A stretch of DNA of 47,472 nucleotides, from NCBI GenBank assembly GCA_001661245.1, contig KV454016.1:557381-604852 (forward strand), read 5' to 3'. This document shows positions 1 to 46,365 of the stretch, piece by piece. The stretch comes from Pachysolen tannophilus NRRL Y-2460 (lineage: Eukaryota). The notes under the pieces were generated by a model. It did no database searches, was not told where the DNA came from, and was given only the letters and a program-made list of their open reading frames with translations. Both the position numbers and the translations under genes were made by a program. Each line of letters starts with the position of its first letter. Position 1 is the stretch's first letter.

Positions 1-3000
1 GAAAGAAAGAACTACAGGTGATATTGTGAACTTATTATCTGTGGATGTTGGTATAATTCAAACAATGCTTGAAGATATGCAATTTTTTGTGATTGCTCCA
101 ATTAAATTTATTTTATGTTTAATCTCAATTTATTATTTATTAGGAAATGCTGTCTGGGGAGGTGTTTTAGCATTATTCATCATAATGCCTATAAACACTT
201 ACTTAACCAATAAAATACGTATATATGAAACGCTACAAATGGATTTCAGAGATAAAAGAACAGGAATTGTGAATGAGATTTTATCTTCGATGAAAAGTAT
301 CAAATTGTATGCTTGGGAGAAACCAATGTTGAAAAAATTAAATGATGTTAGAAATGGTCAGGAATTAAAGAATTTGAAGAAAATAAGCATTTTAAATGCA
401 TTGATGCAGTTTACTTGGCATAGTATTACACTCTTGGTTAGTTGTTCCACTTTTCTAATATATGTCAAGGTTTTGAAAAAACCATTGACCCCAGATGTTG
501 CTTTCCCAGCATTATCTTTATTTAGCTTGTTAAAAGATCCAATTTATGCATTACCAGCTTGTATTAAGCAGTTCATTGAATTTCGTATATCTTTGGGTAG
601 AGTCTCGAGCTATTTAACTGCAGAAGAAATTAACGATGAAACAGTGAAGAAGTTATCAAAAGTTGTTCATTTAGGTGATCAGAGCATCACAATTTCAAAT
701 GCTACATTTTTGTGGAACAATGTGAAAACTGATGACGGAGGTGAAGAACAAGATTTTTCTTTAAACAGTGTTGCTTTGAAAAACATTGAATATGATGCTA
801 AAAAGGGTGAGCTTTCTTGTATTGTTGGTAAGGTCGGAGCTGGAAAGTCTACTTTTTTGAAATCTTTATTAGGAGAACTACCAATGGTACATGGTTCTGA
901 TAAGTTTAAACCACCAATTCTAGAAGTTCATGGATCTATTGCTTATTGTCCTCAGGTAGCATGGATAATGAATGCTTCTATTAGGGAGAATATTTTATTT
1001 GGCCATAAATTTGAAGAAGATTTTTATGAATTAGCATTAGATGCATGTGATTTGAAGGAAGATTTAAAATCTTTACCAGATGGTGACGAAACAATGGTTG
1101 GTGAAAAGGGAATTGCGCTTTCTGGAGGACAAAAGGCAAGAATATCATTGTGCCGTGCCTTATATTCAAGAGCAGATATTTATATCTTGGATGATATCTT
1201 ATCTGCTGTTGATGCCCACGTAGGAGCAAAGATCACAAGAAAAGTACTAAGTAAAGATGGTTTACTAGCTTCCAAAACGAGAATTCTAGCGACTAACTCT
1301 GTTACTGTATTAAGTGGATCCGATAATATTGTATTGTTAGAAGGTGGTGAAATTATTGAAAGAGGTAGCTATCAGGAAGTTGTTGGAAATTCTGGTAGCA
1401 AATTATCTGGATTAATTAAAGAGTATGGTGCCAATGAGCAAGAGAAAATAAATTTACCTGAAAAGGAAAGTGATTTTTCAGTTGGCTCCAAAACTACATC
1501 GACAGATGGGTCTGAAGTAATTGCGGTTGATGAAATCGACGAAACTGATGATATTGAAATGTTAGCTGACAATTTAGGAACTCATCCGTTTAACTCAGGA
1601 AACCCCAATTCTATTGGTGGCTCACCTTTGGAAAGAATTGCAACTCATCAAACATTAAGGAGGGCTAGTGTAGTTACTTTATCAAAAGAAGTATCTCAAA
1701 AAAATAATAAAAAGAATATCATTACTGCTCAGAAGGAAGAGACAGCAGCAGCTGGGAAAGTCAAATTGGCAGTGTACATGTCATATGCAAAAGCATGCAA
1801 TATTGCTGGTGTTATTTGTTATCTCTCGATATTGTTAATAACTGGCTTTTCATCAATTTTAGAAAGCTTTTGGTTAAAATATTGGGCTGAAAATAATAGT
1901 CAAACTGGGGAAAACTCTAATAGTACATTTTTCCTTAGTATTTACCTGCTGTTAGGTATTACGACGGGTGTATTAACTGCTATCCACACTGCTATTATGT
2001 GGGCATTTTGTGCTTTCAATGGATCAAAAGTTTTACATGATAAGTTAGCTAGGTCCATTATGAGGTCCCCAATGTCATTTTTCGAGACTACTCCCATAGG
2101 TAGAATTATGAATAGGTTTTCTGATGATATCAATAAGGTTGATGAACAATTACCAAATGCATTCGACGGTATGTTTTATGAGATTGTTAGTATTAGTTTC
2201 ACAATTGCAATTGTTGCATATAATTTACCGATGTTTTTGGTGATATTTGCAATTTTATCCATACTTTATATTTTTTATCAGGCATACTTTGTGGTTACTT
2301 CGAGAGAATTGAAAAGAATTGTCAGCATATCAAGAAGTCCCGTTTTCTCTCATTTGTCTGAATCTGTTGGTGGTGCTGAAACTATTAGAGCTTTTAACCA
2401 GAAGCTGAGATTCATATTTCTCATGTCGAACTTTGTTGATTTTAATTTGAAATCGCTTTATAGTTCAATTAGTATAAACAGATGGTTATCAGTAAGATTG
2501 CAATTTATTGGATCTTTAGTTATTTTAGCATCTTCTCTGTTGGCTATATTGAGCTTGAGAAGTTCTACTCCATTGAGCCCTGGTCTCATAGGTTTGGTGA
2601 TGAGCTACGCATTACAAGTGACTTTTTCATTGAATGCGATGGTCAGATTGACTGTGAACGTTGAAGTCCAAATAGTTAGTGTTGAAAGAATCAACGAATA
2701 TTGTGATATAAAACCAGAAGCAGAATCGATAATTGAAAATAAGAGGCCACCAGCTTATTGGCCCTCTGTTGGAGCAGTTAAATTTAAACATTACACAACA
2801 AGATATAGAGAAGATTTGGATCCAGTATTGAACGATATAACATTAGATATAAAGCCTCAGGAGAAGATTGGTATTGTTGGAAGAACTGGTGCTGGGAAAT
2901 CCACCATGGCCATGGCTTTGTTCAGATTGATAGAAGCCACCGATGGTTGTATTGAAATTGATGGTTTCAACATTGGTGAGATTGGACTACATGATTTGAG

Positions 3001-3553
3001 GAAAAATTTAAGCATTATCCCTCAAGATTCACAAGCTTTTGAAGGAACTATAAGATCAAATTTAGATCCTATATCGCAATACTCTGATGAAGAATTATGG
3101 AAAGTCTTGGAGTTGGCGCATTTGAAAGATCATGTTTTATCTATGGTTGAAGAAACAAATGACTCAAAACAACCATTGTCGATTGAAGAAAAACACAAGT
3201 TGGCATTAGAATCTAAAGTTGCTGAAGGGGGTTCAAACTTATCGGTGGGACAAAGACAATTGATGTGTTTAGCAAGAGCATTATTGAATTCATCAAAAGT
3301 ATTAATTTTGGATGAAGCAACAGCTGCGGTTGACCTCCAGACAGATAAAGTTGTACAAGAAACTATCAGATCCGAATTCAAAGACAGAACAATCTTAACC
3401 ATTGCTCATAGACTAGATACCGTCATGGATAGCGATAGAATTCTTGTATTGGAAAAGGGGAAAGTAATGGAATTTGAAGACCCAAAGGTTTTACTAGAGA
3501 ATAAAAACAGTTTATTCTACAAATTATGCGAACAAGGAGGTTACCTTAGTTAA
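1..3553 (+). CDS. ABCC/MRP-type ABC transporter, YCF1/BPT1/MLT1-like (5' part lies outside the window)
   Basis: Frame is open from base 2 (KERTTGDIVNLLSVD). TMD1-NBD1 (GKVGAGKS, LSGGQKAR, LDD), linker with the LRRAS PKA site typical of Ycf1, TMD2 (FFETTPIGRIMNRFS), NBD2 (GRTGAGKS, NLSVGQRQ, LDEATA, IAHRL). Confidence 0.93.
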   Translation, partial: KERTTGDIVNLLSVDVGIIQTMLEDMQFFVIAPIKFILCLISIYYLLGNAVWGGVLALFIIMPINTYLTNKIRIYETLQMDFRDKRTGIVNEILSSMKSIKLYAWEKPMLKKLNDVRNGQELKNLKKISILNALMQFTWHSITLLVSCSTFLIYVKVLKKPLTPDVAFPALSLFSLLKDPIYALPACIKQFIEFRISLGRVSSYLTAEEINDETVKKLSKVVHLGDQSITISNATFLWNNVKTDDGGEEQDFSLNSVALKNIEYDAKKGELSCIVGKVGAGKSTFLKSLLGELPMVHGSDKFKPPILEVHGSIAYCPQVAWIMNASIRENILFGHKFEEDFYELALDACDLKEDLKSLPDGDETMVGEKGIALSGGQKARISLCRALYSRADIYILDDILSAVDAHVGAKITRKVLSKDGLLASKTRILATNSVTVLSGSDNIVLLEGGEIIERGSYQEVVGNSGSKLSGLIKEYGANEQEKINLPEKESDFSVGSKTTSTDGSEVIAVDEIDETDDIEMLADNLGTHPFNSGNPNSIGGSPLERIATHQTLRRASVVTLSKEVSQKNNKKNIITAQKEETAAAGKVKLAVYMSYAKACNIAGVICYLSILLITGFSSILESFWLKYWAENNSQTGENSNSTFFLSIYLLLGITTGVLTAIHTAIMWAFCAFNGSKVLHDKLARSIMRSPMSFFETTPIGRIMNRFSDDINKVDEQLPNAFDGMFYEIVSISFTIAIVAYNLPMFLVIFAILSILYIFYQAYFVVTSRELKRIVSISRSPVFSHLSESVGGAETIRAFNQKLRFIFLMSNFVDFNLKSLYSSISINRWLSVRLQFIGSLVILASSLLAILSLRSSTPLSPGLIGLVMSYALQVTFSLNAMVRLTVNVEVQIVSVERINEYCDIKPEAESIIENKRPPAYWPSVGAVKFKHYTTRYREDLDPVLNDITLDIKPQEKIGIVGRTGAGKSTMAMALFRLIEATDGCIEIDGFNIGEIGLHDLRKNLSIIPQDSQAFEGTIRSNLDPISQYSDEELWKVLELAHLKDHVLSMVEETNDSKQPLSIEEKHKLALESKVAEGGSNLSVGQRQLMCLARALLNSSKVLILDEATAAVDLQTDKVVQETIRSEFKDRTILTIAHRLDTVMDSDRILVLEKGKVMEFEDPKVLLENKNSLFYKLCEQGGYLS

Positions 3554-3859: not shown

Positions 3860-5071
3860 ATGTTGTTTATGAAACCTGTTCAGAGGTCAGGTCTTTTAAT
3901 AGATAGAGGATTAATTAGAATATCGAAAAGACCTTTAGCTGTACATTTTAAAAGATATGTTGATGTAATCAAGCCTAATTTAAATATTCGATCGGTTTCG
4001 GTTAAGACTGATAATATTGATTGGAATCCAATGAAGACTCAGCGTCAATTAGATAGGGCTTCACTGCCCAAGAAAGGGAAAAAAGTTGTTTTAGGGTTAT
4101 TATGTTTAACTCCGGTCATTACTTTTTTCCTTGGTTGTTGGCAATTAGAAAGATTAAAATGGAAGAATTCTTTAGTTGCTGAATGTGAAGATAGATTAAC
4201 TTATAATCCTGCTCCTTTACCCAAGAGTGTTATGCCTGAAGATGTACCAGATTTTGAGTACCGTAAGGTGTTAGTTACAGGAAGATATGATTATGACCAT
4301 GAAATGCTTGTTGGACCAAGATTATTAAATGGTCAAAGAGGTTACTTATTAATTACTCCATTCATTAGATCCAGTGATGGTAAGAAAATTATTGTGGACA
4401 GAGGTTGGATATCTGCAGATAAAGTCAATCCTAATACAAGAACTCTACATCATTTATCAGTGCCGGAAGGTGAAATTACTATTCAATGTATGTTAAGAGT
4501 TCCTCCAAAGAAAGGTATGTTCCACATTGACCACGAACCGAACACCAAGATTTTCCGTTATTTGGACCTTGATCTGATGGCAAAACAGAATAACGCATTG
4601 CCTATATATGCTCAAGTAATCCAGGATTTCAGCGACCATCCTGAATACTTGCCAGAAAATAGAATCCAACAACAAGAAAATGGTGGTTCCTCTTTACCTG
4701 GTTCTTCTTGGAAATTCTGGTCGCATTCCAGTAACACCAATAGTAGCATTAGCAATATCAACCAACCGGACCAGAATACTAATGGTGTTCCCGCAGCAGC
4801 TCCAACATATTCTTTTGATTCCCCAACCGTTGCCCAAATGAGCAAAACGTTTGACAGCTCTATTCAATTCGATGAACACCAGTTCATCTCTGCAGGTGTT
4901 CCACTAGGTAAAATTCCAACTGTGGATTACAGAAATACACATTTGCAATACGTTGTGACCTGGTGGGGTATTTCTATTTCTTCAGCAATCTTATTGGCCA
5001 TTGTCTTCAAAAAGAGAAAAATCGTTAACCCACTACAAGAGAAATTAAGACATGCCAGCAAAACCATGTGA
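3860..5071 (+). CDS. SHY1: SURF1-family cytochrome c oxidase assembly factor
   Basis: Basic mitochondrial-type N-terminus, LGCWQLERLKWK, VDRGWI, and C-terminal RNTHLQYVVTWWG SURF1 motifs. Confidence 0.95.
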   Translation: MLFMKPVQRSGLLIDRGLIRISKRPLAVHFKRYVDVIKPNLNIRSVSVKTDNIDWNPMKTQRQLDRASLPKKGKKVVLGLLCLTPVITFFLGCWQLERLKWKNSLVAECEDRLTYNPAPLPKSVMPEDVPDFEYRKVLVTGRYDYDHEMLVGPRLLNGQRGYLLITPFIRSSDGKKIIVDRGWISADKVNPNTRTLHHLSVPEGEITIQCMLRVPPKKGMFHIDHEPNTKIFRYLDLDLMAKQNNALPIYAQVIQDFSDHPEYLPENRIQQQENGGSSLPGSSWKFWSHSSNTNSSISNINQPDQNTNGVPAAAPTYSFDSPTVAQMSKTFDSSIQFDEHQFISAGVPLGKIPTVDYRNTHLQYVVTWWGISISSAILLAIVFKKRKIVNPLQEKLRHASKTM

Positions 5072-6362: not shown

Positions 6363-6459
6363 AAAGCCCATATATAGATATATAGATATATAGTGGCTAC
6401 AGTTAAGTCAAGTTATTTATATATAAATATACGAATATAAAAAATAAAAAAAATTAAAT

Positions 6460-6547
6460 AGCCCGACGCGGGGGTCGAACCCGCAACCTTTTGATATCCG
6501 TTTAATATCGTAAGAGTCAAACGCTCTACCGATTGAGCTAGCCAGGC
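6460..6547 (-). tRNA. tRNA-Lys(CTT) with a 15-nt intron (6496-6510)
   Basis: Minus strand: GCCTGGC-TA-GCTC AATCGGTA GAGC-G-TTTGA CT CTT A [CGATATTAAACGGAT] A TCAAA-AGGTT-GCGGG TTCGACC CCCGC-GTCGGGC-T. All four stems pair, the intron sits at the canonical 37/38 position, and a T-run Pol III terminator follows. Confidence 0.95.
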
Positions 6548-7198
6548 TTAAATTGTTTCACGCTGGAAGTCTGCCATTCAACTTAGCTGGGGAGTTTCCT
6601 GGTGTTTTGCTTTTGTTATTCCTTCAACACAGTTAAATGTGTTGAAGTAACACATTTAAATTGATGTTTATAGCTGGGAAGTCAAGATGTTTCTTTTTTG
6701 CCTTTTTATCCATTTAGAGTGAAAATGAAATATCTGGTTTTTATCTAAATCTGTAAATTGTTGTAAACTATTTTTAAAATGTTGATTTTTTCGCTTTTTT
6801 TAGTTCTCTTAAGTTATTAGTAAAAGTCCAAAAGATCATCAATTTATCAAGATCTTCATTGGAAAGTAAGGTACAACAATTTTTTTACAAGCCAAAATAA
6901 TTATAAAAATTGGGGAAAGAAAAGATTTACGATTAAAATGTATGTGATGCAGTAATTAGTTTTATTCATCTGCTTGCTTTTACATTAACATTGCTTGAAC
7001 GAATATTCGCTTTTTCAATTAAGAAAATAATTTTAAATTTTTTACTTAAATTTTTTAAAAAGATAAAGAAAATAAGGTGAATTTTTTATTATTTTAAGAA
7101 ATTTTCATGTTTTTTTTTTTTTTATTTTTTTTTTAGAAACAAACTTATTATATGATAAATGGATTTATAGTAGTTTCTAGTACTGGTATTGGTTGGAT

Positions 7199-12220: not shown

Positions 12221-13113
12221 TTAAGCGTATAATTTCAATATTCTTTCTTCAATTTCATCCATACATGATGTATATTGTAGTATCATTACACTTTCAGATT
12301 CTCCCTTCATGACTTTATGTACTTGTATATTAGCACCTGGCATTTGTATAGGCATTTGTTGAGTTTGTTGTTCTAATAATGCAGAATCACTTTTTAAAAT
12401 CAAACTATAAACAGCTTTTAAACCAAATAAATTAACAAAATACCAACTAATTGAGCTTACCCATCTAACATCTAAATCAGGTGTTGAAACTCCATTTTGA
12501 AGCATTGATTTAAATCTTAAAGTTAAAGGAAATGGTAATTTCATTATTACAAATCCAGCAAAGAAATAATTCACCCACCACATAATCACCGCCTGTGGGA
12601 CATAATTTGCTATATTATTTTTAATCATTGAAAACATTAAATTAGGAGCATTTGGATCTGAAAGAGGATTTGGAGGAAGTTCATTAGGATCTGGTATACC
12701 ATCTTTTAAATATTTCATGGATTTCATTGTCTCTGAAATATGTTTTTTCCTTAATTCAAAATCTTGTTTTGAAGGTAATATAAAATAATTTTTCCTAAAT
12801 ATAGCTGAATGTTGAAGGTGTTGTCTGTTGAACCAAACCAAAAAAAAATAATTAAAAATTAAAAATGATCAATTGTTAGTTTATTTCTATCCTCATACCT
12901 TCGAGTCCCTTTTAGAAAATTTTTTTTCTTTTTAAATTTCATTTTATTCACTTACTGTTCTCTAACCAGTTTCCATTCTTGTAACTTTGGAGATGGTTCA
13001 AGTAAAATCGTTATATATGTTCTTAATACACCAACTAAAACCATCGCAAAAGAAATGGGTAATAATACCCAATACCTTAAACTAGGATCTAGAACTAAAT
13101 CAGGAACTGCCAT
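12221..13113 (-). CDS. EMC3: ER membrane complex subunit 3; two exons (13113-12956, 12824-12221), 253 aa
   Basis: Exon 1 reads MAVPDLVLDPSLRYWVLLPISFAMVLVGVLR and joins in frame (CA|A) to exon 2 with KLPFPLTLRFKSMLQ and VRWVSSISWYF. Confidence 0.95.
12825..12955 (-). other. Spliceosomal intron in EMC3 (131 nt)
   Basis: GTAAGT donor, AACTAAC branch site (12881-12875), CAG acceptor; removal restores the reading frame. Confidence 0.9.
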
Positions 13114-13285: not shown

Positions 13286-14311
13286 TTAGGCATACAAACC
13301 ATCTTCATAACCGACGGGAAGAGGTTTATTTCCATATACACCTAACCATGATTTTGGGATTTTATTTAAATTGATATTTTCTAAAAATTGAAGGATTTTT
13401 GGGTTAGATGTATTTAATAATTTAAAAATTTTGAAAAATTTTAAATCTAAGAGTTTAGCATCATGTGAATTATCTCCTTCATAAACAAAAATTGATAAAA
13501 TAATTAAATTTATTGAATAATTGTTTGTATTTTTAGTTTCAATTGTAGTATCTTCTGGAGCATTTGTTGAATTTGCACTTAAGAATTTTGTTAAATTATT
13601 TGCCGCTGTAGTTGCTTCTTTTTCAATTTGTGTTGGTTTGAATTTTTGTAATGATAAATCTTTATTATTTGAAACAATTTTTACAAACCCATTAATAAAT
13701 TTTGAATGATTTTTTTCATTTACTTCTTTAATTATATTAAAATTATTAATATTATTATTTTTAGTAAAATCATTTTCAATTTCTTCATCATCAATTGATA
13801 ATTTTTTGAAAAAATCATTTAAATTATCATCATCATAATATATTTGAAATTTTTTTTCATTATTTAATTGTAACCCAAAATCTTCAGAATTTAAAATTAT
13901 AACTTTACTAAATCCAACATTATGAATAAATGGAAGAATTAATTCTGTTAAAAACATATTTTGATAACCTGGTAAAATTGGAGATCTTTGTTGTAAAACT
14001 GAAATTTTTAAATCTTCACCATAATATAATTCTAATGATGATAAAATTCCATTTTCTTGATTTTCTTTCTCTTGTATAAAATTATTAGAATCTATGTTTG
14101 CATCTATAGCACAATCAACTGGTGAAACAAAAGGATACAAATACGTATCATCCAATCTACCAACTAATTTCAAATTCAAATTATAAATTAATAAATCCAC
14201 TGCTAATTGTGGTGTATTACCAATTGAAATTGTCGGAAGTACCAATACAGAATCTTTTAAAATATTCAATGTATCTATTGGATCTGAACCTGGCACAGAA
14301 TGAAACGACAT
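13286..14311 (-). CDS. ADD66: Proteasome assembly chaperone 2 (PAC2/Pba2)
   Basis: LVLPTISIGNTPQLAVDLL, YLYPFVSP, QQRSP, YEGDN and IPKSWLGVYG PAC2 motifs. First ATG is 14311; the ORF track start at 14419 is not an ATG. Confidence 0.9.
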   Translation of the reverse strand: MSFHSVPGSDPIDTLNILKDSVLVLPTISIGNTPQLAVDLLIYNLNLKLVGRLDDTYLYPFVSPVDCAIDANIDSNNFIQEKENQENGILSSLELYYGEDLKISVLQQRSPILPGYQNMFLTELILPFIHNVGFSKVIILNSEDFGLQLNNEKKFQIYYDDDNLNDFFKKLSIDDEEIENDFTKNNNINNFNIIKEVNEKNHSKFINGFVKIVSNNKDLSLQKFKPTQIEKEATTAANNLTKFLSANSTNAPEDTTIETKNTNNYSINLIILSIFVYEGDNSHDAKLLDLKFFKIFKLLNTSNPKILQFLENINLNKIPKSWLGVYGNKPLPVGYEDGLYA

Positions 14312-15761: not shown

Positions 15762-15847
15762 TTTGTTTTATCAAAAATTAATCTATTCAATCAAGAAGTT
15801 TTTGAAGTTTTAAGATTAGGTTTAATATCAGGTTGGAGGGTTAAAAA

Positions 15848-16816
15848 ATGTCATCGGATGAAGTAGATGAGAATAGTAACTTGGAACAGTTGAGAGATAT
15901 CTTGATAAATAAGTCAGGAGATGTTAAATTGTCCAGTAGGTTCAGAGCGCTTTTTTTATTAAAATCCATTGGATCAGAATTTGAAAAAGATAAAGTGAGA
16001 GCTAATACTGCTATTAGATATATTGTTGAATGTTTTAAAGATAATTCTGAACTTTTGAAACATGAAGTTGCTTATGTCTTAGGACAGACTAGGAATTTGG
16101 ATGCTGCACCTTTACTTAGACAAGTTTTAGCTGATAAAAATCAGCAATGTATGGTTAGACATGAAGCTGCAGAAGCTTTAGGAGCATTAGCTGATATTGA
16201 ATCTTTAAAAATGCTTCAAGATTATTTTGAAAATGATCCTGAATTAGAGATAAGGCAAACATGTGAATTAGCAATAGAAAGAATCAAATGGGAAAATAGT
16301 ACACTGTCAAAAACTGAAATTTTACAAGAATCTTTATATTCATCTATTGATCCAGCTCCACCATTAGCAATTACACAAGATGAAGATAAAAATGAATCCG
16401 AAAAAATTGCAAAATTAACACGAGTATTGAATGATCAAGAACTGCTGTTATTTGAACGTTATAGAGCAATGTTTAGACTTCGGGATATTGGAACAGATGA
16501 AGCTTGTCTTGCATTGGCAAGTGGGTTTAATGATCCTTCAGCTTTATTTAAACATGAAATTGCTTACGTCTTTGGACAATTATGTAATCCAGTTACCGTT
16601 CCTTCTTTGATAAAAGTATTACAAGATAAGTCTCAAGCTGGAATGGTTAGACATGAGGCTGCAGAAGCTTTAGGTTCAATTGCCACTGATGAAGTATTAC
16701 CAATTTTGAAAAGTTTTCTTAATGATGAGGAAGATGTGGTAAGGGAAAGCGCTGTTGTTGCGTTGGACATGTATGAGTACGAAAATTCAAACGAAATGGA
16801 ATATGCTACAGTTTAA
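15848..16816 (+). CDS. LIA1: Deoxyhypusine hydroxylase (DOHH)
   Basis: Four HE motifs in HEAT-like repeats ([36 protein letters not shown]) and the SIDPAPP linker. Confidence 0.97.
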
Positions 16817-16973: not shown

Positions 16974-17348
16974 TCAATTGTTAGTTCTAAACCTATAACC
17001 ACAATCTGTACAAGTATAAAAAACAGTTGCACCTTCATCAGCAGATCTTAACTGTAAAGTATGATATTGCATTTCTTCATTACCACATTGCGGACATTTT
17101 TCCTTTATAGTAGCACCTTCATCCAATTCAGATTTCTTCAACGAAGTCTTGACTACCGATTTCTTTGATTTCAAAGCCGAGGGGAAAGCATCTTCCGAAG
17201 TTGACGTTACCACTTTTAAATTTTTAAATTGTGTTGATTGATATTCTTTTAAACATACTTTGCAATTTAAAGGTTTTGATGGATCAGAAACAGAGTCCAA
17301 CAAATTCCCACAATCAGTACAAAATATCAAAGATCCAACTACAGACAT
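16974..17348 (-). CDS. RPA12: RNA polymerase I subunit A12.2
   Basis: MSVVGSLIFCTDCGNLL zinc ribbon and C-terminal TFIIS-like CPQCG..QLRSADEGATVFYTC..C; ATG at 17348. Confidence 0.97.
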   Translation of the reverse strand: MSVVGSLIFCTDCGNLLDSVSDPSKPLNCKVCLKEYQSTQFKNLKVVTSTSEDAFPSALKSKKSVVKTSLKKSELDEGATIKEKCPQCGNEEMQYHTLQLRSADEGATVFYTCTDCGYRFRTNN

Positions 17349-18108: not shown

Positions 18109-19791
18109 ATGGCTCAACAGCAACAACATATGATGGAGATGCCTGATATGTCCAATGCTATTGTTGCACAGGATGAAATGGGTAGGCCATTTATTATTGT
18201 TAGAGATCAAGGTAAGAAAAAGAGAACTCATGGGATTGAAGCTGTTAAGTCTCATATATTGGCGGCTAGGTCTGTTGCTTCTATTTTGAAAACTTCGTTG
18301 GGGCCAAGGGGTTTGGATAAAATTTTAATTAGTCCTGATGGAGAGATTAGTATAACAAATGATGGTGCTACTATATTATCTCAAATGGAATTATCTAATG
18401 AGATTGCTAAATTGTTGGTTGAGTTATCTAAATCTCAGGATGATGAGATTGGAGATGGAACCACAGGGGTTGTGGTGTTGGCTGGTGCATTGTTAGATCA
18501 AGCATTTGAATTGATTGAAAAGGGAATTCATCCAATTAAAATTGCAAATGGATTTGATGAAGCTTGTAAAATTGCAATCAATAATTTAGATAAAATTGCT
18601 GATGAAATTGAAATTAATCTTGATGATCTTGATGCAAATTTATCTAATGATTCTAATTTATTTAAAGCTGCAAAGACTTCTTTAGGTTCAAAAATTGTTT
18701 CTAAATGTCATGATCAATTTGCTAAAATGGCTGTTGAAGCTGTATTATCAGTTGCAGATTTAAAAAGAAAAGATGTTGATTTTGAATTGATTAAAATTGA
18801 AGCAAAAGTTGGTGGTTCATTAGAAAATTCTAAATTAATTAAAGGTGTTATTGTAGATAAAGATTTTAGTCATCCTCAAATGCCTAAAATTATTAAAAAT
18901 GCAAAAATTGCTATATTAACATGTCCATTTGAACCTCCAAAACCAAAGACAAAACATAAATTGAATATTTCTACAGTTGAAGAATTTCAAAGTTTACAAG
19001 ATTATGAACAGGATAAATTTCAAGAAATGATTAAATATGTTAAAGATTCAGGTGCAAATTTAGTAATTTGTCAATGGGGATTTGATGATGAAGCAAATTA
19101 TTTGTTATTAGAAAATGAGCTTCCAGCTGTTAGATGGGTAGGTGGTCCAGAAATTGAATTAATTGCAATTGCTACAAATGGTAGAATTGTTCCAAGATTT
19201 GAAGATTTGAAACCTGAAAAATTAGGTACAGCTGGATCAGTTAGAGAATTAGAATTTGGTACCACTAGAGATCGTATGCTTGTTATTGAAGATTGTGCAA
19301 ATAATAAAACTTGTACTGCATTCCTTAGAGGCTCTAATAAAATGATTGTTGATGAAGCAACAAGAGCATTACATGACTCACTTTGTGTTGTAAGAAATTT
19401 GATTCGTGATAATAGAGTTGTCTATGGTGGTGGTGCCGCTGAGATTTCATGTTCCATTGCTGTAGCAGATGAAGCAGATAAACAAAAAGGTATAGACCAG
19501 TATGCATTCAGAGCTTTCAGTGCTGCTTTAGATGTCATTCCAATGTCATTAGCTGAAAATTCAGGTCTAGATCCAATTGAATCATTAACCAGTTTAAAAT
19601 CAAAACATGTAATTGAAGAAAATAGCCATTTGGGTGTGGATTGCTTAGGTAAAGATAACAACGATATGAAAGAATTGTTTGTCATAGATCCATTGATTGG
19701 TAAGAAGCAACAATTGTTATTGGCAACACAGTTGACTAGAATGATTTTGAAAATTAACGATGTAATTATTAGTGGAAAAGACGAATATTAG
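18109..19791 (+). CDS. CCT5: Chaperonin CCT/TRiC epsilon subunit
   Basis: [54 protein letters not shown]. Confidence 0.98.
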
Positions 19792-26900: not shown

Positions 26901-29900
26901 AAAGTATTTCCAGAGCTTTGGAAAGCGAATTCAAGCTTTATTTGTCGGATATTTTAACATTATTATTGGACATTTTTGATAATGATAAATCTGTTTATAG
27001 AAATGCTTCCTTAAGGGTGTTGAAGACTTTTGTTGTTTTTGGAAATAATATCGATCTTTATGTTCATTTGATTGTTCCACAAATAGTCAAAATGTTTGAA
27101 TTTGCTCCAAACAATTTAAGGAAAGCTGCGATCGAAACAGTTGGAAAGATTTCAAGAAATGTGAGCTTGAATGATATGGCGTCAAGAATTATACATCCTT
27201 TATTGCGGGTTTTATCAAGTAACAATAGTGATGAATTACGAAAAGTTTCTATGAATACTATATGCTTATTGTTGTTACAAATGGGCACAGACTTTATGGT
27301 TTTCATCCCAGTCATAAACAAAGTTCTATTGAAACATAAACTTTCTTCGGCTGTTTACGACCAGTTAGTTAATAAATTACTTAATGGTGAACCGCTTCCT
27401 CAAAATTTAATAATAGACAAAGAATTTGAATCGCAGGCACTTGAATCAATGGACATAGAACCATCGGCCAAGAAACTACCTGTTAACCAACAAGTTTTGA
27501 AAAATGTATGGGACGCAAGTCAAAAGAGAACTCGTGAAGATTGGCAGGAGTGGCTCAGAAGACTTAGTGTAGAGTTTTTAAAAGAATCACCTTCTCATGC
27601 TTTGAGAGCTTGCTCTTCATTGGCAGGGGTTTACTATCCTTTGGCTAAAGACTTATTTAATGCTAGTTTTGCAAGTTGCTGGAATGAATTGTATTCCCAG
27701 CATCAAGAAGAGTTGATCCAGTCTTTATGTATTGCTTTGTCGTCTCCCAACAATACCCCGGAAATTCATCAAACATTATTAAATTTAGCCGAATTCATGG
27801 AACATGATGATAAACCATTACCAATTAGAATTCCAACTTTGGGCCAATATGCACAACGTTGTCATGCCTATGCTAAGGCTTTGCATTACAAAGAATTGGA
27901 GTTCATGCAGGAACCTACTACGCCAACCATTGAAACATTGATTAGTATCAACAATCAATTGCAACAAGAGGATGCCGCCATTGGTATATTGAAACATGCT
28001 CAGCAACATCATGATTTGCAATTGAAGGAAACTTGGTTTGAAAAATTAGGTAGATGGGATGACGCCTTGCAGGCATATAGTGAAAGAGAAAAAGAAGACC
28101 CTGATTCAATGGAAATTACCATGGGTAAGATGCGTTGTTTACATGCTTTAGGTGAGTGGGAACAGTTGTCAGAATTAGCTCAAGAAAAATGGTTAAGTTC
28201 TTCTAGTGATGTTAAAAGAACAATTGCACCGTTAGCTGCAGCTGCATCATGGGGATTATACCAATGGGATAGAATGGACAAATATATTAATGTTATGAAG
28301 CTGGAATCTCCGGACAAAGCTTTCTTCAACGCTATTTTAAGTTTGCACAGGAACCACTTTGAAGAGGCTTCAAATCATATTTTAAAAGCAAGAGATTTGT
28401 TGGTTACAGAAATCACTGCCTTGGTAAGTGAATCCTATAATCGTGCCTATAGTGTTATTGTTAGAGTTCAAATGTTAGCTGAGTTAGAAGAAATTATCAA
28501 ATACAAGTGCTACCCACAAGGATCTGAAAAGAGAGCAATCATGAGAAAAACCTGGAACACAAGATTATTAGGTTGTCAAAGGAATGTCGATATTTGGCAA
28601 AGAATGCTTAAAGTTAGAGCATTGGTTGTGAAGCCAAAACAAGATATGGATATGTGGATAAAGTTTGCAAATTTATGCCGTAAAAGTGGAAGATTGGGTT
28701 TAGCAGAAAAATCGTTAAGCTCTTTGCTAGATGAAGGTAGTCCTGAAAATCCTAGACCATCGAAAGCATCACCTCAGGTTGTTTATGCTCAATTGAAATA
28801 TATGTGGTCTACAGGACAACAACGAGAAGCATTGAGCCATTTAGTTGATTTTACATCGAAGTTATCCAGAGATCTTGGTTTGAATGAAAATGAAGCGATT
28901 GCTCAGCCATTACCTTCTGAGGTTCCTGGAGCTCCGAAGCACGTTGAAGAATATACCAAGCTTTTAGCCAGATGTTATCTTAAGCAAGGTGAGTGGAAAG
29001 TGGTGCTAACTAATAATTGGAGAAAGGACGAAGCTGAAGGTATTTTAGGTTCGTATTTATTAGCCACTCATTTTGATGGTAAATGGTACAAAGCATGGCA
29101 TAACTGGGCATTAGCTAATTTTGAAGTCATATCATTACATTCAAGTGAAATTTCTACCAACAGCATAAACGGCGATTTTGAAGATGCTATGTCCTCAGCA
29201 AATGTAGACAGAGGCTTAGATGTTCAACCTGGATTGATTCAACATTATGTAGTTCCAGCTATCAAGGGATTTTTCCATTCAATTTCATTATCAGAAGCAA
29301 ACTCTTTACAGGATACTTTACGTTTATTAACATTGTGGTTCAAGTTTGGTGGAATCCAAGATGCTGCCCAGGCAATTTTAGAAGGCTTTGGAATGGTGAA
29401 GATTGATACCTGGTTAGAAGTTATTCCTCAATTAATTTCAAGAATTCATCAGCCAAATCAAATTGTCAGTACATCACTATTGGGTCTATTGACTGACTTG
29501 GGTAAAGCGCATCCACAGGCTCTTGTGTACCCATTATCTGTTGCTATAAAATCTGATAGTATTTCTAGGCAAAGGGCTGCTTCGACCATCATTGATAAAA
29601 TGAGGATTCATAGTGCTACTTTAGTGGAACAATCCGAGTTGGTAAGTCATGAATTGATTAGAGTTGCTGTCTTATGGCATGAGTTGTGGTATGAAGGTTT
29701 GGAAGATGCTTCAAGGTTATACTTTGGTGAACATAATACAGAAAAGATGTTTACCGTTTTAGAGCCTTTACATAAATTATTAGAAAAAGGTCCAGAGACT
29801 TTACGTGAGGTCTCGTTCCAAAATGCTTTTGGTAGAGATTTAAACGATGCTCGTGAGTGGGTTTTGAACTATAGGAGAACCAAAGATGTTGCAAATTTGA

Positions 29901-31210: not shown

Positions 31211-31347
31211 GAAAAGAATTAAAAACTTTGTATTTATTTAATTTTTTTTTTCTTTTCTTCTTTTAGAAATCCCAATATGTTTATAATTAAATTGATAAAT
31301 GAATTATTTAAATCGAATAAACTATATAGTAGTAACACCATTAAAAC

Positions 31348-31931
31348 TCATAAATTATTTTGAAACTCTTCAAGTAGATTTTCAGCCAGTGCAGCCCATT
31401 TCTCAACTAATTTATGTTTCCCATCCAACAACTCTATATCTTCACTAAAATATTTATGATTTAAAACTTTACTTATAAATAATTCGTCTTTCATTTCTTT
31501 CCAAATCTTATCCACTTTCATGGAAGCTTCTTCGTTTTCACTGTCTTTCAAACAACTCAAGATCCCTATAGTCTTACCAACATCTAATCCGATATTTGCA
31601 CCAACTTTATAACCATCATCAAAACCTCTTTGAGTACTTTTTTCTTATTTTCAGTTAAACCTTCTACATAACCTCTCTTTGCATGTTGCCTTCTAAGTGC
31701 CAAAGTATCAACATGCTCCCCACCTTCCGTCCGCCCAGAATCTCCAAAATTATGATCTTCTTCATTTGCTGCATGAGGTTGAAAATGTTCTTCATCACCA
31801 TCAGATAACCAAACATCTTCCTCTTCTTCAGAAACTGTCTGTACACTGTTTTCCAATTTCTGACGTTTCTGAGCCAAATTGCTCACCAAAGCCAGGCTAT
31901 CCTGCTGTTTATTGCCTTTAGGATATACCAT
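31348..31931 (-). CDS. YAE1: Yae1 (Fe-S assembly adaptor for Rli1), interrupted by a 1-nt frameshift at about 31637-31646
   Basis: DVWLSD..LRRQHAKRGYVEG in one frame continues as STQRGFDDGYKVGANIGLDVGKTIGIL (GX3 repeat) in the -1 frame, through to the stop at 31348. Convergent with TOR as in S. cerevisiae. Start at 31931 preferred over 32030. Confidence 0.85.
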
Positions 31932-32084
31932 CTCAATTCCATTATTCCTCTTCCTTTTACCAATCCTCAAATTAAAAAAAGAACAATTTACCATAATATA
32001 ACCAACCCATCCTTTCATCATCCTCATCATCGTTTCTTATACCGCTAAAAGCTGAAAATTTGCAAAAAAAAGTCTATCATCAGA

Positions 32085-36020: not shown

Positions 36021-37148
36021 ATGCTTTCATCAGTATCAAGAAGGTATAACTTGAAGTTATCTTCAGTTTCTTTGAGTCGTTTCAATTCTTCAGTAGCAGG
36101 TTTTAAACCTCCGTTTATACCGATAACAGCAGAGAAAGGTTTCCCAGATGCAGTTGGTAATACACCATTGATAAAGTTAAACCATCTTTCAAAAGAGACT
36201 GGAAGAAACATTTACTGTAAGGCAGAATGGATGAATCCAGGTGGATCGGTTAAGGATAGGGCAGCTTTATACATGATTCAACAAGCTGAAAAAAGAGGTG
36301 CAATTACTAAAGGAGCAACCGTTGTTGAAGGTACTGCTGGAAACACCGGAATTGGTTTAGCCCATATTTGTAGAGCTCGTGGTTATAAATGTGTAATATA
36401 CATGCCAAATACACAATCTCCATCAAAGATGAATTTGTTAAGGTTATTAGGTGCTGAGGTTTACCCTGTTCCAGTTAAACCATTCACTGATCCAATGAAT
36501 TTTAATCATCAAGCAAGAAGACATGCAGAAAAATTGGATAATGCTATTTGGACGGACCAATTCGACAATTTGGATAATAGACAGGCCCATATCGAGACAA
36601 CTGGGCCCGAAATTTGGTCCCAGTTGAACGGTAAAGTAGATGCATTCACCTGTTCTACTGGTACCGGTGGAACCTTTTCAGGTATTACCAGATACTTGAA
36701 AGAAATCTCTAATGGTAAAGTCTTATCCATTGTTGCTGATCCCCCAGGTTCATGCGTTTATTCTTATGTTAAGTCTGGTGGTAAAAGTTTAGAAAGAGCA
36801 GGTGGTTCTTTCACTGAAGGAATTGGTCAAGGAAGAATCACAAATAACGTTGCCCAAGATATTTCCCTTATTGACGATGCAATTAGAATCCCAGATGAAG
36901 AATCAATAGCTATGTTGTATAGATTATTGGACGAAGAAGGTGTTTATACCGGAGGTACAGGTGCTTTGAACGTTGTCGCTGCTGTGAAAGTTGCTCAAAT
37001 GGTTCCAGAAGGTTCAAATGTTGTCACAATATTAGCTGATTCTGCTAATAAATATGCAGACAGAATTTTCAGTAAGAAATGGTTAGAATCAAAAGGTATT
37101 TATGATGCAATTCCAGCACATTTGAAAAAATACGTTGCCTTGGAATAG
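36021..37148 (+). CDS. Cysteine synthase / O-acylserine sulfhydrylase (PLP fold II) with mitochondrial-type presequence (CysK/CysB/MCY1-like)
   Basis: [25 protein letters not shown] (PLP lysine), [29 protein letters not shown]; Arg/Ser-rich N-terminus from ATG 36021. Confidence 0.93.
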
Positions 37149-37523: not shown

Positions 37524-40500
37524 TTACGATGCATGAACATAAGCTTTATTCAAATTGTAAATTTCTTTGCATAAGATAAACCAATCAACTTCCCTTAGCC
37601 AGCTATGATTGTTAGTCAGCAAACTGTTGAATACTCTAGTGTTTTTCGAGTTCTCCTCATTATAGTCGTTGTCTTCCTCTTCCAAACCATTTTGATTTTC
37701 CTTATTGTTTTCTTCTGGTTCTTCGTCGGAAATAACTGCATCCTCCTCCAGAATAGACTTAATATTCGTATTTGAACTAATAGAAATAGAAAATATTGAA
37801 CTATTCAACAGATTGCTAAAATTTTCTGCAGTAATCAAATTATTAGTGATACTGCTTACTGATGATAGACTTGTTGATAAAGATGTCCTTGAGGGAACTG
37901 AAAATGAGCGAGAATGTGAATGAGAATTGGAAAAAACTGAATTCAAACTTCCACTCAACTTAGATGTAGATTTAGATAGACAATGATGAACACTATTTTC
38001 TGTAACGACTGACGCTCTCTTGCCGTTACTATTAAGTGCTAGTGACCGTTGTGATTTAACATAAGTCTCTTCCCACTTGAATAATTCATACATTAGTTTT
38101 AAATTTGGCTGAATAATAACGTTTAACCTTCTAACTCTCACATAAAGGTAGGCTCTGACCAAACTTATATTTAAACGTTTTATAACTTCAGCAATGCAAA
38201 CAGTAGCAGATCTGGAAACTCCAACTTGGCAATGAACCAAAATTTTTTCATTTCTAATATAACCGGAATCAATGAAGTTCAATGCATCAGTTATCGTATT
38301 AGTTAAAGTCCCAATACCATCATCATTGATATTAGTAATATGCATTATAGAATCAATGAGACAATCATCATTGATTAAAGGATCATCAGACTTAGAATCT
38401 ATTAGTTTCATAATTTTGCAACCTGATTCGGTTGTAGATATCGTGAAATTATAATCAGATAACCAACCCAATTGTTCACCAACGGAGACAATCCTTGTGA
38501 TTCCAAGTTCATTTAATAACGGTAAATTGTTAGCATGGGTTAAAGAGCCTAAGTACAAATGAGGAAGAACTCTAGAAGGCAAAGAACCAAAAACTTGTTC
38601 ACAACAGCCAGGTTGTTCTCTGGTCTGCTCACTTTCCGAATCGCTAGAATCACTAGAATCATCATCATGAGGAAGATGTCGACTATTTGCAATTTTTTCT
38701 GCGTTTGAAAGGTCGATTAATACCCTTGGATTTGCTTTTCTAGTATTTGGAACCAACAAACATGAATTGATAACATGAGCTTCGATTTTATCCAATCCCG
38801 GTTCAAATTTTATATCCTTATTAGCAATTGGAGAATATTTTAAAAGTAGTCTTTGTAATTTCTGTAGTAAGAAGTAATCTGATTTGAAAATGAAAAATGG
38901 TCTACCATGATATTTATGCAATCTCAATATTGCCTTATCTAATGTTAATCCCTCCGAGTAAATAATAAAAGATAATCCCAATAAAGAACTTTCAGTATAA
39001 CCATCTGAACAGTATACAAGCCCATTGAAAAACTCATCCGGTTTACCTACCAAAGCTGTACCACACCTGTAATACAATAATTTACAAACATTAACTAGCG
39101 ACAAAATATCTTCATCTCTTAAATCCCCCAATCCAATTGATCCTGAAGGAGGGAATTCTAAATATATCTGCTCGTAATAATCATCCGTACAATGCAATAA
39201 AAACTGATGCAAGTCTGCCAACTGTGGGAATTGGGCACCATCGTAGCAGTTTATAAACAATTTCCAATTTTGTTTGGGTTTTGTTATCAACAATTGTTCT
39301 TTGCTCATATTTTTCTGCTTGGCATTACAAATATCTGTCCAAGTTAAAGTGGTTATAGTGTTAGCAGGATCACAATATAACGGTGGTGAACTATTTTGCA
39401 TAGAAGGGATTTGATTTGATAAAGATGTTCTTTCCGTTATCAGATTCTGATCATCCGAATTATTATTCCAAAGCTTATTACGATAAGTTTCAAAATCAGT
39501 TGTATTTCCAAACCAGACATTCCGGGATACATATGTTGCAGTAGACATTTTGCAAATTTCCAATTTTTCTCTGTATAAAGAGTTATCATCCCAATAGTTA
39601 AACAAATTAATGTCAAGTTCTGGCATTGATTGACCTATACTGTTATCTGGAGTCTTTATTTCCACAGCTTTCGTTTCCAACAAATCTGAATCTTTCTGTA
39701 AATCAAATGATTTCAAAATATAGGTATTGTAATAGTTATTATAGCGACAATTTGGAGCTTGCTGATTAATTTCTGGATGTTCGATTGAAAACTTAAGTTG
39801 TGCTAGGTATAATAATCTAGCTAACGAATCACAATGACAATTTCTTTTAGTTTTCAAAGATTTTAATATAATAGTGGTTTTTTCTTGTTTATAAGACATA
39901 TGATGATCATTCTTGAAACAATAAACGATAAAATCTGAAATGTGACTTATCTTACTTGATTGAATGTGGAAATTTCTTAAACTAACACCATTTTGGGGAT
40001 CTAATTCTTTGAAAAAAGGTAATAATTTTAATCGCAAGCAATCTCTATAAATTAATTCTGTGTTAAATTTCAAATCATTTTCAAATCTTAAAGCATTAAA
40101 TAATAAACTTATTGATTCTCTAAGCCTACTAAGTTCAATAAAATCTAAAGGTAATAAAACATCGGAAGCATTAATTGAACCTTTTAAACCATATAAATTC
40201 GAATTTGTATCATTTTCATTATCAAATGTGTCATTTTGTTTTAATGTTGGCGGTGAAGTAGCAATCATTAAGAATCTGACTTTTTCAGGAATTTTAAAAG
40301 GATCATAATTACTTTGATTATTATTCAAAAATTTCTTTTGAGCAGTATTGTGTCTATGCATACCATGAAGCCATGGGAACATTTTATCCACTGTAGGTAG
40401 TTCGTTGGAGTAATACCAATTAACAATATCTGTAAATTGTTGTTGATTCAATAATTTAATATTATGATTATCGTACAAAGATTCTTTTAAGCTCTGGTAA

Positions 40501-40931
40501 AAATCCAGAGATATATCCAAGGAGAAATTCTTAAATGATGATGATTCTGGCGCGTTATTCAATGAACTACATGCCAAAGACACCAATGATGACGATGGAG
40601 ATTTCGAATTAGAAGCTGGAGGCGTCATTAGATGTCCCGCGTTATCACCGGCATTAACGGTATTCATATATCTTGTCTTGAACTTATCTCTTGTATCAAA
40701 TTTCTCCGTAGATGTACTGTTAGACCTTTTATTCGATCTCTTACTCCCATCAATCTCATTATTGGTATTTTTCTTCAAATCTGAATCTGCTTCAATAAAT
40801 ATATTTTCTTGTTCATGCAAGATGTTTGTTATTATCGGTAAAGGCGATGTAGATCTGCTCTTCAGTCGACTATTCGACGAAATTTCAATGGGACCTATAT
40901 TCGATAGGTTCGTATCAACATTCGAAGACAT
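37524..40931 (-). CDS. PPS1: Dual-specificity protein phosphatase Pps1
   Basis: MFPWLHG, SLRNFHIQ, degenerate first domain YCSDGYTESS, SLPSRVLPHLYLGSL.HA, catalytic VHCQVGVSRSAT, YVRVRRLNVIIQPN; first ATG at 40931. Confidence 0.92.
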   Translation of the reverse strand: MSSNVDTNLSNIGPIEISSNSRLKSRSTSPLPIITNILHEQENIFIEADSDLKKNTNNEIDGSKRSNKRSNSTSTEKFDTRDKFKTRYMNTVNAGDNAGHLMTPPASNSKSPSSSLVSLACSSLNNAPESSSFKNFSLDISLDFYQSLKESLYDNHNIKLLNQQQFTDIVNWYYSNELPTVDKMFPWLHGMHRHNTAQKKFLNNNQSNYDPFKIPEKVRFLMIATSPPTLKQNDTFDNENDTNSNLYGLKGSINASDVLLPLDFIELSRLRESISLLFNALRFENDLKFNTELIYRDCLRLKLLPFFKELDPQNGVSLRNFHIQSSKISHISDFIVYCFKNDHHMSYKQEKTTIILKSLKTKRNCHCDSLARLLYLAQLKFSIEHPEINQQAPNCRYNNYYNTYILKSFDLQKDSDLLETKAVEIKTPDNSIGQSMPELDINLFNYWDDNSLYREKLEICKMSTATYVSRNVWFGNTTDFETYRNKLWNNNSDDQNLITERTSLSNQIPSMQNSSPPLYCDPANTITTLTWTDICNAKQKNMSKEQLLITKPKQNWKLFINCYDGAQFPQLADLHQFLLHCTDDYYEQIYLEFPPSGSIGLGDLRDEDILSLVNVCKLLYYRCGTALVGKPDEFFNGLVYCSDGYTESSLLGLSFIIYSEGLTLDKAILRLHKYHGRPFFIFKSDYFLLQKLQRLLLKYSPIANKDIKFEPGLDKIEAHVINSCLLVPNTRKANPRVLIDLSNAEKIANSRHLPHDDDSSDSSDSESEQTREQPGCCEQVFGSLPSRVLPHLYLGSLTHANNLPLLNELGITRIVSVGEQLGWLSDYNFTISTTESGCKIMKLIDSKSDDPLINDDCLIDSIMHITNINDDGIGTLTNTITDALNFIDSGYIRNEKILVHCQVGVSRSATVCIAEVIKRLNISLVRAYLYVRVRRLNVIIQPNLKLMYELFKWEETYVKSQRSLALNSNGKRASVVTENSVHHCLSKSTSKLSGSLNSVFSNSHSHSRSFSVPSRTSLSTSLSSVSSITNNLITAENFSNLLNSSIFSISISSNTNIKSILEEDAVISDEEPEENNKENQNGLEEEDNDYNEENSKNTRVFNSLLTNNHSWLREVDWFILCKEIYNLNKAYVHAS

Positions 40932-43233: not shown

Positions 43234-43321
43234 TACAAATGACCTTCAAATGACCTTCAAATACCTCTGTGAAATCTCAAGTTTATACTCTCTTGTTCCA
43301 CTCTAATATTATTTTAAAAAG

Positions 43322-43350
43322 TGAAAAATTTTTTGAATTTAAGAGATGAG
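43322..43350. promoter_or_regulatory. RRPE (43322-43332) and PAC core GATGAG (43345-43350) upstream of UTP18
   Basis: Consensus motifs adjacent to each other about 90-115 bp from the ATG of a ribosome-biogenesis gene. Confidence 0.72.
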
Positions 43351-43481
43351 ATTTAAATGACACGTTAAAATTCAACTCATTTTTAAACCTGGTGAAGAAA
43401 CTAAAAGAAACCCAAGTTGATAATATAATTAATAGTAATTAATCATTTGAATAAAATTTCTATATAATTCAAATCATCAAG

Positions 43482-43884: not shown

Positions 43885-44036
43885 AGAAAAGAAAAGAAAA
43901 GAAAAAAAAATTTTTTTTTTTAATTAAAACTTATTTATTTGAATTTTAAGTATAAACTTGTAAATAATATATGTATATGTATATGTATACATATATATAT
44001 ATATAAATAATCTAAATTATGTGACGAAAATAATCA

Positions 44037-45107
44037 TTATTTCAATGGGAGACCATGTTTTTTCTTGTAGTGTAAGATTTGTTGAACAGTGTCAACAACA
44101 CTTTTCTCCAAAGGAATGAATTGCACGCCTGTTAATTTAGCACTTTCACTGTTATCATAAGCTGGATAACTTTTAAGAGCATCCTCAGCAGCTTGTGGTG
44201 TACCTGTTGCAATTTTACCCTTTAATTCAGGGAAATCCTTATTAACAATGTTTAAAAAAGCTTGTTGTGAGAATTTCCCTTGAACTGGGAATAATCTTTT
44301 ATTTCCTAAATTTTTTTCAAAAGCCAATACATGAAACAATGCAACGTCTCTAACATCAACTGAAAGTAAACCATCTTTAGTGAATTTTGTAGGATCATCA
44401 GCACCATCACCAGGATTAGTTTTCAATACATCATTGATGAGTTCACAAGATGTATTTAATTTCCCACTTTGTAAAGCATCTTCAAATACTTGAGGACCAA
44501 AAATATAAGGTGGAAGTAAAGTTGTCAATTCAAAAGAAGGTTTTTCCTTTTCAACAAAATCCCAAGCTGCTTTTTCAGCTAAAGTCTTTGAAGCTATATA
44601 TGCAGCATGTTCATCAACTCTTGCTTGCTCCCAAGTAATTGGATTCCATGTCTTTTCAGTATGAATAAAACTTTGATCTGCAACCTTATCATAGTTAAGA
44701 ACAGAAGCAAATGACGATGTAATAATAACATTAGTAACCTGTGGTGCATACTTCTTAATAGCTTTTAAAACGTTAAGAGTACCTTCAACTGCAGGTTTAA
44801 GGTAAGCATCTTCAGGAGAAGTTTCAAACCCAAAACTAAAAGGACTAGCTGTATGAAGAACATACTTGATACCTTTATTTTGCTTTAAAACTTCATCAAA
44901 AGCTCCTTCCTCAGCAATATCTTTAACAATTTCAAATCTTAACGTAGCATTAGGATACTTGGTTTGAAATTGCTTCAAAATCTTATCACCTTTCTCCAGA
45001 CTTCTAACAGTACCAATTACCGGATAATTTTTCGATAATAAAACATCAACAACGTGTAAAGCAACAAATCCACTAGCACCTGTAACTAAAACTGTAGTAG
45101 CACTCAT
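44037..45107 (-). CDS. NADPH-dependent methylglyoxal/aldehyde reductase, GRE2/ARI1-like extended SDR
   Basis: VLVTGASGFVA, HTASPF, PAVEGT, TSSFAS, YIASKTLAEKAAWDF (YxxxK), VDVRDVA; ATG at 45107. Confidence 0.93.
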   Translation of the reverse strand: MSATTVLVTGASGFVALHVVDVLLSKNYPVIGTVRSLEKGDKILKQFQTKYPNATLRFEIVKDIAEEGAFDEVLKQNKGIKYVLHTASPFSFGFETSPEDAYLKPAVEGTLNVLKAIKKYAPQVTNVIITSSFASVLNYDKVADQSFIHTEKTWNPITWEQARVDEHAAYIASKTLAEKAAWDFVEKEKPSFELTTLLPPYIFGPQVFEDALQSGKLNTSCELINDVLKTNPGDGADDPTKFTKDGLLSVDVRDVALFHVLAFEKNLGNKRLFPVQGKFSQQAFLNIVNKDFPELKGKIATGTPQAAEDALKSYPAYDNSESAKLTGVQFIPLEKSVVDTVQQILHYKKKHGLPLK

Positions 45108-45614
45108 TTTTTTTTTTGGTTTTCTTCCTTCAATTGAATGATCAATATTAATACTAATAATAATAATAAGAATAATGAAATAATTATAATAAAATGAAAG
45201 AAGAAAAAAGAAAAGAATAGTAACTTGGTGGCTAGATGTCGTTTTTATATCTGCAGATGAGAGCAAGGAATAAACGTTTAAAATCCGTAAAAAATCCTCT
45301 TACCTTGCAGAATACAGCAAGATGACAAATAAAATTAAAAGCTTTAACAGGTTGATTTATTTTTTTTTACGATCGTCTTCCATCACTTCTAACCTTAAGA
45401 GACACCTCAAAGCATTTAGCGGCTTTTGAATTGTCGAATAAACGATGAATATTTGAAATGATACATTTTACACATACAAGTACTATTTACAACCTTATTG
45501 GGTGATAACTTATTAATTCTACTAATTTTTAATAATTTTCACTAGTTGTTAATGATGCAACAACAACAACAAAACAACTAAACAACAAAACAATTCTTTT
45601 TCACCATTTATTTT

Positions 45615-46365
45615 TCATGATTTACCAAATTTTGAAATAATTAAATTGTACAATTTTGGGAAGATGATATCTGATGTTTCTCCAGAGACTTTATGGAGGA
45701 TATTTTGATTTTCATAAAATTTTTTTAAAGGAGTAATTTCATTGTGATATTTTTGTAATCTTTGCTTAAATACTTGCAGATTATCATCAGGTCTTTTTGA
45801 TAAATTTTCACCTGTTATATCGTCTTTACCTGGGATTTTTGGAGGGTTATATTGAGTATTGTAAACTCTTCCAGAAGGAATATGCTAGAAAATTATTGTT
45901 AGTAATTATGATTTAAAGTGGAAAAAGGAAAAAGGAAAAAAAACTTACAACCCAACGATTTTCAACTCTTTGTAGTATAACATCTTCAGGAATATCCAAT
46001 TCTACAACTAAATTAATATTAACATTGTGTTTAGATAATCTATTATCCAATCCAATTGCCTGATTTAAAGTTCTAGGAAACCCATCTAATAACCAAGTTG
46101 CATTTGGAGAAAGCCAATTTTTATCAGATAATTCTTTATAAATTAAATCTAATATAATAGAATCTGGTAATAAATCTCCTTTTTCAATATACTTACTGGC
46201 TGTCTTACCAATTGAAGATTTAATTGAAATCTCTTTTCTTAATAAATCACCAGAAGAAATTGAGGTTAAAGTTGGAATCTTGGCCAATAATTTTGAAGTT
46301 TGTGTCCCTTTCCCAGAACCAGGAGCTCCTAAGAGTAATAACCTTAATGGCTTGGTTAATGACAT
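45615..46365 (-). CDS. ADK2: Mitochondrial GTP:AMP phosphotransferase (AK3); two exons (46365-45949, 45884-45615), 228 aa
   Basis: LLLLGAPGSGKGTQ, SSGDLLR, WLLDGFPRT; spliced RWV|HIPSGRVYN..NPPK.PGKDDITGE.L.KRPDD; C-terminal SGETSDIIFPKL. Confidence 0.95.
45885..45948 (-). other. ADK2 intron (64 nt)
   Basis: GTAAGT ... TACTAAC ... TAG, phase 0, restores the LID-domain sequence. Confidence 0.93.

Follow-up and report, generated by a model that had tools for sequence, protein, structure and literature searches.

CTG codons in a nuclear stretch of Pachysolen tannophilus are read as alanine: a known code, decided by its CAG-anticodon tRNA rather than by alignment columns

The yeast Pachysolen tannophilus translates CUG as alanine (NCBI table 26), and the code, the tRNA that serves it and proteomic proof were all published in 2016 (Muhlhausen et al. 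2016, PMC4937558). As reported there, liquid chromatography with tandem mass spectrometry (LC-MS/MS) placed alanine at 97.2% of 907 fully supported CUG positions and found CUG to be as unambiguous as AUG; alanyl-tRNA synthetase (AlaRS) recognises G3:U70 and A73 rather than the anticodon, and an anticodon-mutated tRNA-Ala inserts alanine at CUG. The code has been extended to Nakazawaea and Peterozyma (PMC5951914), and the diagnosis of the order Alaninales includes it (PMC11182611); CUG calls made with Codetta matched the known distribution in 453 of 462 yeasts (PMC8629427). CUG-Ser codes involve the same codon, captured likewise by a tRNA whose synthetase disregards the anticodon. Here we analyzed a stretch of 47,472 nucleotides from P. 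tannophilus NRRL Y-2460 (contig KV454016.1; G000:C6:557381-604852), called the window below, which is budding-yeast DNA of 30.7% G+C from a genome of 12.6 Mb. An original prediction, made from these letters alone, held that CTG codons in the window sit at alanine positions and that the organism is a CUG-Ala yeast, and rightly said that the code itself is known. We put at about 98% the probability that the window is a nuclear stretch from Pachysolen tannophilus, of the order Alaninales, in which CUG is translated as alanine. Riley et al. 2016 is reportedly another source for the CUG-Ala code of this species. The closest described system is the same species, by protein identity, with the same code, and the predicted placement in table 26 and the Pachysolen group is backed by an alanine-type tRNA(CAG), by identity to P. 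tannophilus proteins and by the published proteomics (PMC4937558).

The search that the prediction had proposed, for an alanine-type tRNA with a CAG anticodon and a G3:U70 pair, found such a gene on the same contig, outside the window. This 72-nucleotide tRNA-Ala(CAG) lies on the minus strand at G000:C6:217831-217902 (L056:1454-1525), about 340 kb before the window, and scores 57.6 bits against the Rfam tRNA family. It was located with a pattern modelled on the 5' half of Ala tRNAs in this genome, which returned six ordinary Ala genes and, with three mismatches, this seventh place; a genome search allowing up to three mismatches showed it to be single-copy. Its body is that of an alanine tRNA: the variable arm is short, and G3:U70, A73 and G37 are present. 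By description it matches the published one, for which an Ala body, G3:U70, A73, G37 and no extended variable loop are given (PMC4937558). It is identical at 54/72 positions to the Ala(AGC) and at 51/72 to the Ala(UGC) tRNAs of the genome, with alignment scores of 82 and 73, respectively, compared to 69 for Gln, 60 for Val, 45 and 30 for Leu, and 32 and 28 for Ser tRNAs. In the mechanism that we propose, an ancestral tRNA-Leu(CAG) would have been lost and a single gene descended from tRNA-Ala would now bear the anticodon CAG; because AlaRS reads G3:U70 and A73 of the acceptor stem and disregards the anticodon, tRNA(CAG) would be charged with alanine, and it lacks the long variable arm that the Leu and Ser synthetases require. 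In P. tannophilus it is this tRNA, not alignment columns, that decides between alanine and serine.

We found no CAG anticodon among 16 long-arm Leu/Ser tRNA genes. None of the eight matches to a Leu/Ser-type CAG pattern was such a tRNA, but because these were pattern searches and no full inventory, a divergent Leu/Ser-type CAG gene could be overlooked. As a control, the same pattern with CAA recovered two tRNA-Leu(CAA) genes among three matches. ARAGORN, run on 50 loci from the Rfam tRNA search, reported no CAG tRNA; the Ala-derived pattern later found tRNA(CAG). In CUG-Ser codes, by contrast, the CAG tRNAs are of serine type with a long variable arm, and the pattern searches found none of these here.

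Deposited proteins agree with an alanine reading of the genome. The P. tannophilus record P0149 is encoded in L184 with 1600/1609 identical residues, the other nine being CTG codons read as Ala, and the P. tannophilus midasin record P0241 has Ala at 22/22 CTG codons checked; that both are encoded in this genome (G000) supports its membership in Pachysolen and hence in the CUG-Ala group. The dynein record P0361 has Ala at 16/16 CTG codons, and among records matching window genes, LIA1 (P0001) has it at 3/3 and an ABCC transporter (P0121) at 6/6. These records show that public annotation already translates with table 26.

The prediction had called for a tally of the residues found at CTG columns. 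We made this tally on sampled sets, recording homologue residues under each codon with CTG masked; leucine was rejected in every set, and the preference for alanine over serine was weak and set-dependent. The orthologue set consisted of midasin, dynein, LIA1 and four ABCC genes, giving 14,683 columns, 65 of them at CTG. Its references exclude three proteins of the same species and the records of the queries themselves; those for the ABCC genes include paralogues as well as orthologues. Some references in the set may carry translations made under an incorrect code. All 60 of the 60 other codons in this set gave their own standard residue, and the 65 CTG columns fit Ala best (-22.9 bits), followed by Ser (-42.1), Gln (-65.5) and Leu (-126.7). 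Ala was best in 81% of bootstraps and was ahead of Leu in all 10,000. The Ala-minus-Leu score was +104 bits for these 65 columns, whereas true Leu codons gave -341 ± 30, and Leu columns conserved at 80% or more occurred at 0/65 CTG codons compared to 614/1771 other Leu codons. For the paralogue set, 70 of 94 matching kinases and 21 of 33 matching DEAD-box helicases were taken together with 10 ABCC-type transporters, for a total of 38,356 columns, with 105 of 140 CTG codons in columns of at least 70% occupancy. Here too 60/60 other sense codons gave their own standard residue, and Ala minus Leu was +55 bits for the 105 columns, compared to -415 ± 39 for true Leu codons. Pfam scores were also obtained for nine proteins of the window, each translated with tables 1, 12 and 26. 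Seven were informative and two were not; the summed Ala-minus-Leu score was +7.9 bits.

These results leave a negligible chance that the standard code holds, with CUG read as leucine through wobble of tRNA-Leu(UAG) and the predicted sites explained as chance substitutions. The genome does have a tRNA-Leu(UAG) gene, Leu is the majority residue in 7/29 paralogue and 2/14 orthologue majority columns at CTG, and one second-rank Pfam family (3Beta_HSD) favoured Leu. However, Leu was best in 0/7 top Pfam families, both Ala-minus-Leu sums are positive where true Leu codons are strongly negative, a cognate Ala-type CAG tRNA exists, and column statistics together with the published MS/MS data (PMC4937558) refute a leucine reading.

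Several results weigh against reading CUG as alanine. In the Pfam test, taking the top family for each of the seven informative proteins, Ser was best in five and Ala in two, and the summed Ala-minus-Ser score was just +0.3 bits. The 105 paralogue CTG columns fit no residue (Ser -119, Thr -137, Ala -140 and Leu -195 bits), and none of the 29 paralogue majority columns is Ala, with Leu in seven. Without the ABC transporters, the orthologue set ranks Ser, Gln and Ala in that order. On the side of the tRNA, the score of 69 against a Gln tRNA is to be counted, and the inventory is partial, the Rfam tRNA search having scored 63 of 1003 candidates. Alanine in the deposited records, finally, reflects the annotators' choice of table and is no independent measurement.

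A serine code like that of the Candida clade (NCBI table 12) draws on the five Pfam results, the paralogue set and the orthologue set without ABC transporters, and also on a 2014 alignment study (PMC4986446) in which none of the Pachysolen CUG codons fell at sites with 90% conservation of Leu or Ser and serine was the residue assigned; its outcome is consistent with the weak column evidence seen here. We nevertheless regard a serine code as very improbable: the acceptor stem of the sole CAG tRNA found is of Ala type and its variable arm is not long, Ser is the majority residue in 0/14 orthologue majority columns at CTG, the Ala-minus-Ser score of true Ser codons lies so far below that of CTG that 0/5000 draws reach the CTG value, and later proteomics gave Ala, which refutes Ser (PMC4937558). 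CTG behaves like neither an ordinary Ala nor an ordinary Ser codon, and the window alone excludes Leu and leaves Ala versus Ser undecided. Thus, the prediction reached the right conclusion by an under-determined route, as its columns did not separate Ala from Ser; rather than that CTG codons sit at alanine positions, it should be said that CTG is not Leu and that the one tRNA found with a CAG anticodon is of alanine type. The same caution applies to hand-picked alignment columns in general, which in P. tannophilus exclude Leu but cannot separate Ala from Ser.

CTG seldom occupies conserved positions. Columns conserved at 80% or more in the orthologue set make up 3/65 at CTG compared to 225/717 at the alanine codons GCN (Fisher p=5e-7), 236/1343 at Ser codons and 647/1771 at other Leu codons. 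Ala-majority columns account for 2/65 at CTG and 294/717 at GCN, whereas CUG was described as reassigned "mainly at conserved alanine positions" (PMC4937558); one CTG, at midasin residue 1300, does lie under a near-invariant Ala (115/119). In Nakazawaea peltata, CUG makes up 27.5% of Ala codons and is reported at highly conserved Ala positions (PMC6041473), compared to 5.7% and mostly variable positions here. Ambiguous decoding, mainly as Ala with a sizeable Leu share from tRNA-Leu(UAG) wobble or G37-aided mischarging, would explain such avoidance of conserved columns; G37 does adjoin the anticodon of tRNA(CAG), and the stochastic decoder Ascoidea asiatica is also marked by avoidance of conserved positions (PMC6041473). 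We consider it improbable, as the published LC-MS/MS data showed no more ambiguity for CUG than for AUG (PMC4937558) and mutational distance from GCN accounts for the pattern alone.

With CUG read as alanine, CTG is two changes from GCN and one change from TTG/CTN, ATG, CAG, CGG, CCG and GTG, so that new CTG codons are expected as non-synonymous changes at tolerant sites. Most CTG codons would accordingly derive, through one single-base substitution at such a site, from codons for Leu, Met, Gln, Arg, Pro or Val, and their rarity in conserved Ala columns would follow from this origin and from the two changes that separate them from GCN. Majority columns whose residue is a neighbour of CTG only (L, M, Q, R) and those whose residue is a neighbour of GCN only (S, T, G, D, E) stand at 7:4 for CTG compared to 18:140 for GCN (Fisher p=1.5e-4), and at 4:3 compared to 9:69 in the orthologues alone (p=0.009). 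In a rank test over every column, p was 0.002 for the orthologues and 0.10 once the paralogues were included. The neighbour counts are small, and the Leu columns could be leftovers from before the reassignment. We give even odds to the proposal that CUG is a mutationally isolated Ala codon, that most present CTG codons are non-synonymous arrivals at tolerant sites and that protein evolution has been measurably bent as a result; in that case, the altered code would have opened one-step paths from Leu, Met, Gln or Arg to Ala that are absent in the standard code.

The CTG sites named in the prediction are real and in frame (1946/1949, 4574, 16442/16445 and 28301 on the plus strand; 44999 and 45779 on the minus strand). 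Leu is the top residue at 0/8 of these codons. The claimed alanine placement held for 1949, where Ala leads with a plurality, and for 4574, where Ala has the best Pfam score; the others fall mostly in non-Ala columns. The pair at 1946..1951 (plus strand) belongs to a YCF1/BPT1-like ABCC transporter, for which the prediction gave the motif IYAALG. Among 119 homologues, the column at 1946 is led by Phe (55, with Ala 40 and Leu 18) and the column at 1949 by Ala (46, with Leu 39 and Phe 10). Further CTG codons of this gene, at 2405 and 2537, face Asp 40, Lys 19 and Glu 16, and Gly 44, Ser 27 and Thr 19, respectively. Two tandem ABCC transporter genes at G000:C8:718500-730300 (L184, L185) are paralogues of this first gene of the window.

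In SHY1 (SURF1 family), the CTG at 4574..4576 (plus strand) gave Pfam SURF1 scores of 170.1 bits as Ala, 168.8 as Ser and 167.6 as Leu; a second CTG, at 4064, is outside the Pfam domain. LIA1 (deoxyhypusine hydroxylase) has two CTG codons at 16442..16447 (plus strand) and a third at 16304. At 16442, the 119 homologues have Lys 49, Glu 27, Thr 17 and Arg 11, with Ala in 2, and at 16445 they have Pro 103, Ser 9, Thr 4, Ala 1 and Leu 1; the Pro codon CCG is one change from CTG. The TOR gene carries a CTG in its FAT domain at 28301..28303 (plus strand), which faces Pro, Ser, Arg and Arg in the four listed alignments to solved TOR chains, with Pfam FAT scores of 434.8 bits for Ser, 434.3 for Ala and 433.0 for Leu; five more CTG codons lie at 24677, 24695, 25469, 25478 and 25499. 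The codon at 44997..44999 (minus strand, in frame by coordinate check) of a GRE2-like reductase faces Gln, Gln, Thr and Thr in the four alignments listed, and Pfam Epimerase scores were 65.6 bits for Ser, 64.9 for Ala and 63.6 for Leu. The adenylate kinase gene ADK2 (window 45618-46365, minus strand) is split by an intron of ~65 bases near 45885-45948; its CTG at 45777..45779 (minus strand) is in exon 2, behind this intron and outside the Pfam match, and in the four alignments listed to solved chains it faces Glu (three human AK2 chains) or Ala (one chain).

Across the window, we counted 38 in-frame CTG codons in 22 genes between 2 and 46365 on both strands (23 coding segments), or 0.32% of 11,693 codons. 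Read as Ala, they make up 38 of 669 Ala codons (5.7%), with GCG less frequent at 30. The prediction had stated that the code changes every translation, which was too broad: 16/22 genes contain an in-frame CTG and 6/22 contain none. Nonetheless, the genome needs table 26, as otherwise 38 residues in those 16 of the 22 counted genes would be wrong. The CTG-free genes lie at 12224-12727, 13289-14311, 16977-17348, 18109-19788, 22325-23404 and 36021-37145 and include a chaperonin subunit, an actin-related protein and a cysteine synthase, named by reading their translations. TOR and a phosphatase at 37527-40931 have clusters of CTG codons in stretches of low complexity.

The codon count omits two gene-like stretches, a spliced one near 46630-47150 and one near 31300-32030 on the minus strand, putatively YAE1-like by a motif. 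The latter apparently changes frame near 31620 and runs on in a different frame for ~75 codons, with no sign of an intron; an assembly slip or a frameshift is possible.

We also noted the code of the mitochondrial genome, contig G000:C10 (L204-L207; 28,450 bases). The genes of the P. tannophilus mitochondrion are listed under NCBI table 3, with CUN as Thr, in PMC9154068. The mitochondrial CUN codons are read by a 73-nucleotide tRNA at L010:1791-1863 that has the anticodon AAG and lacks a long variable arm. In cox1 exon 1, 6/6 CTT codons face Leu in both solved chains listed, and table 4 outscores table 3 in 4/4 mitochondrial genes, table 3 also altering ATA. Sequence comparison thus points to table 4 rather than table 3 as the probable mitochondrial code.

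Within the window, a tRNA-Lys(CTT) gene with a 15-base intron is present at 6459-6548 on the minus strand; an intron-blind scan had named it Val(TAC).

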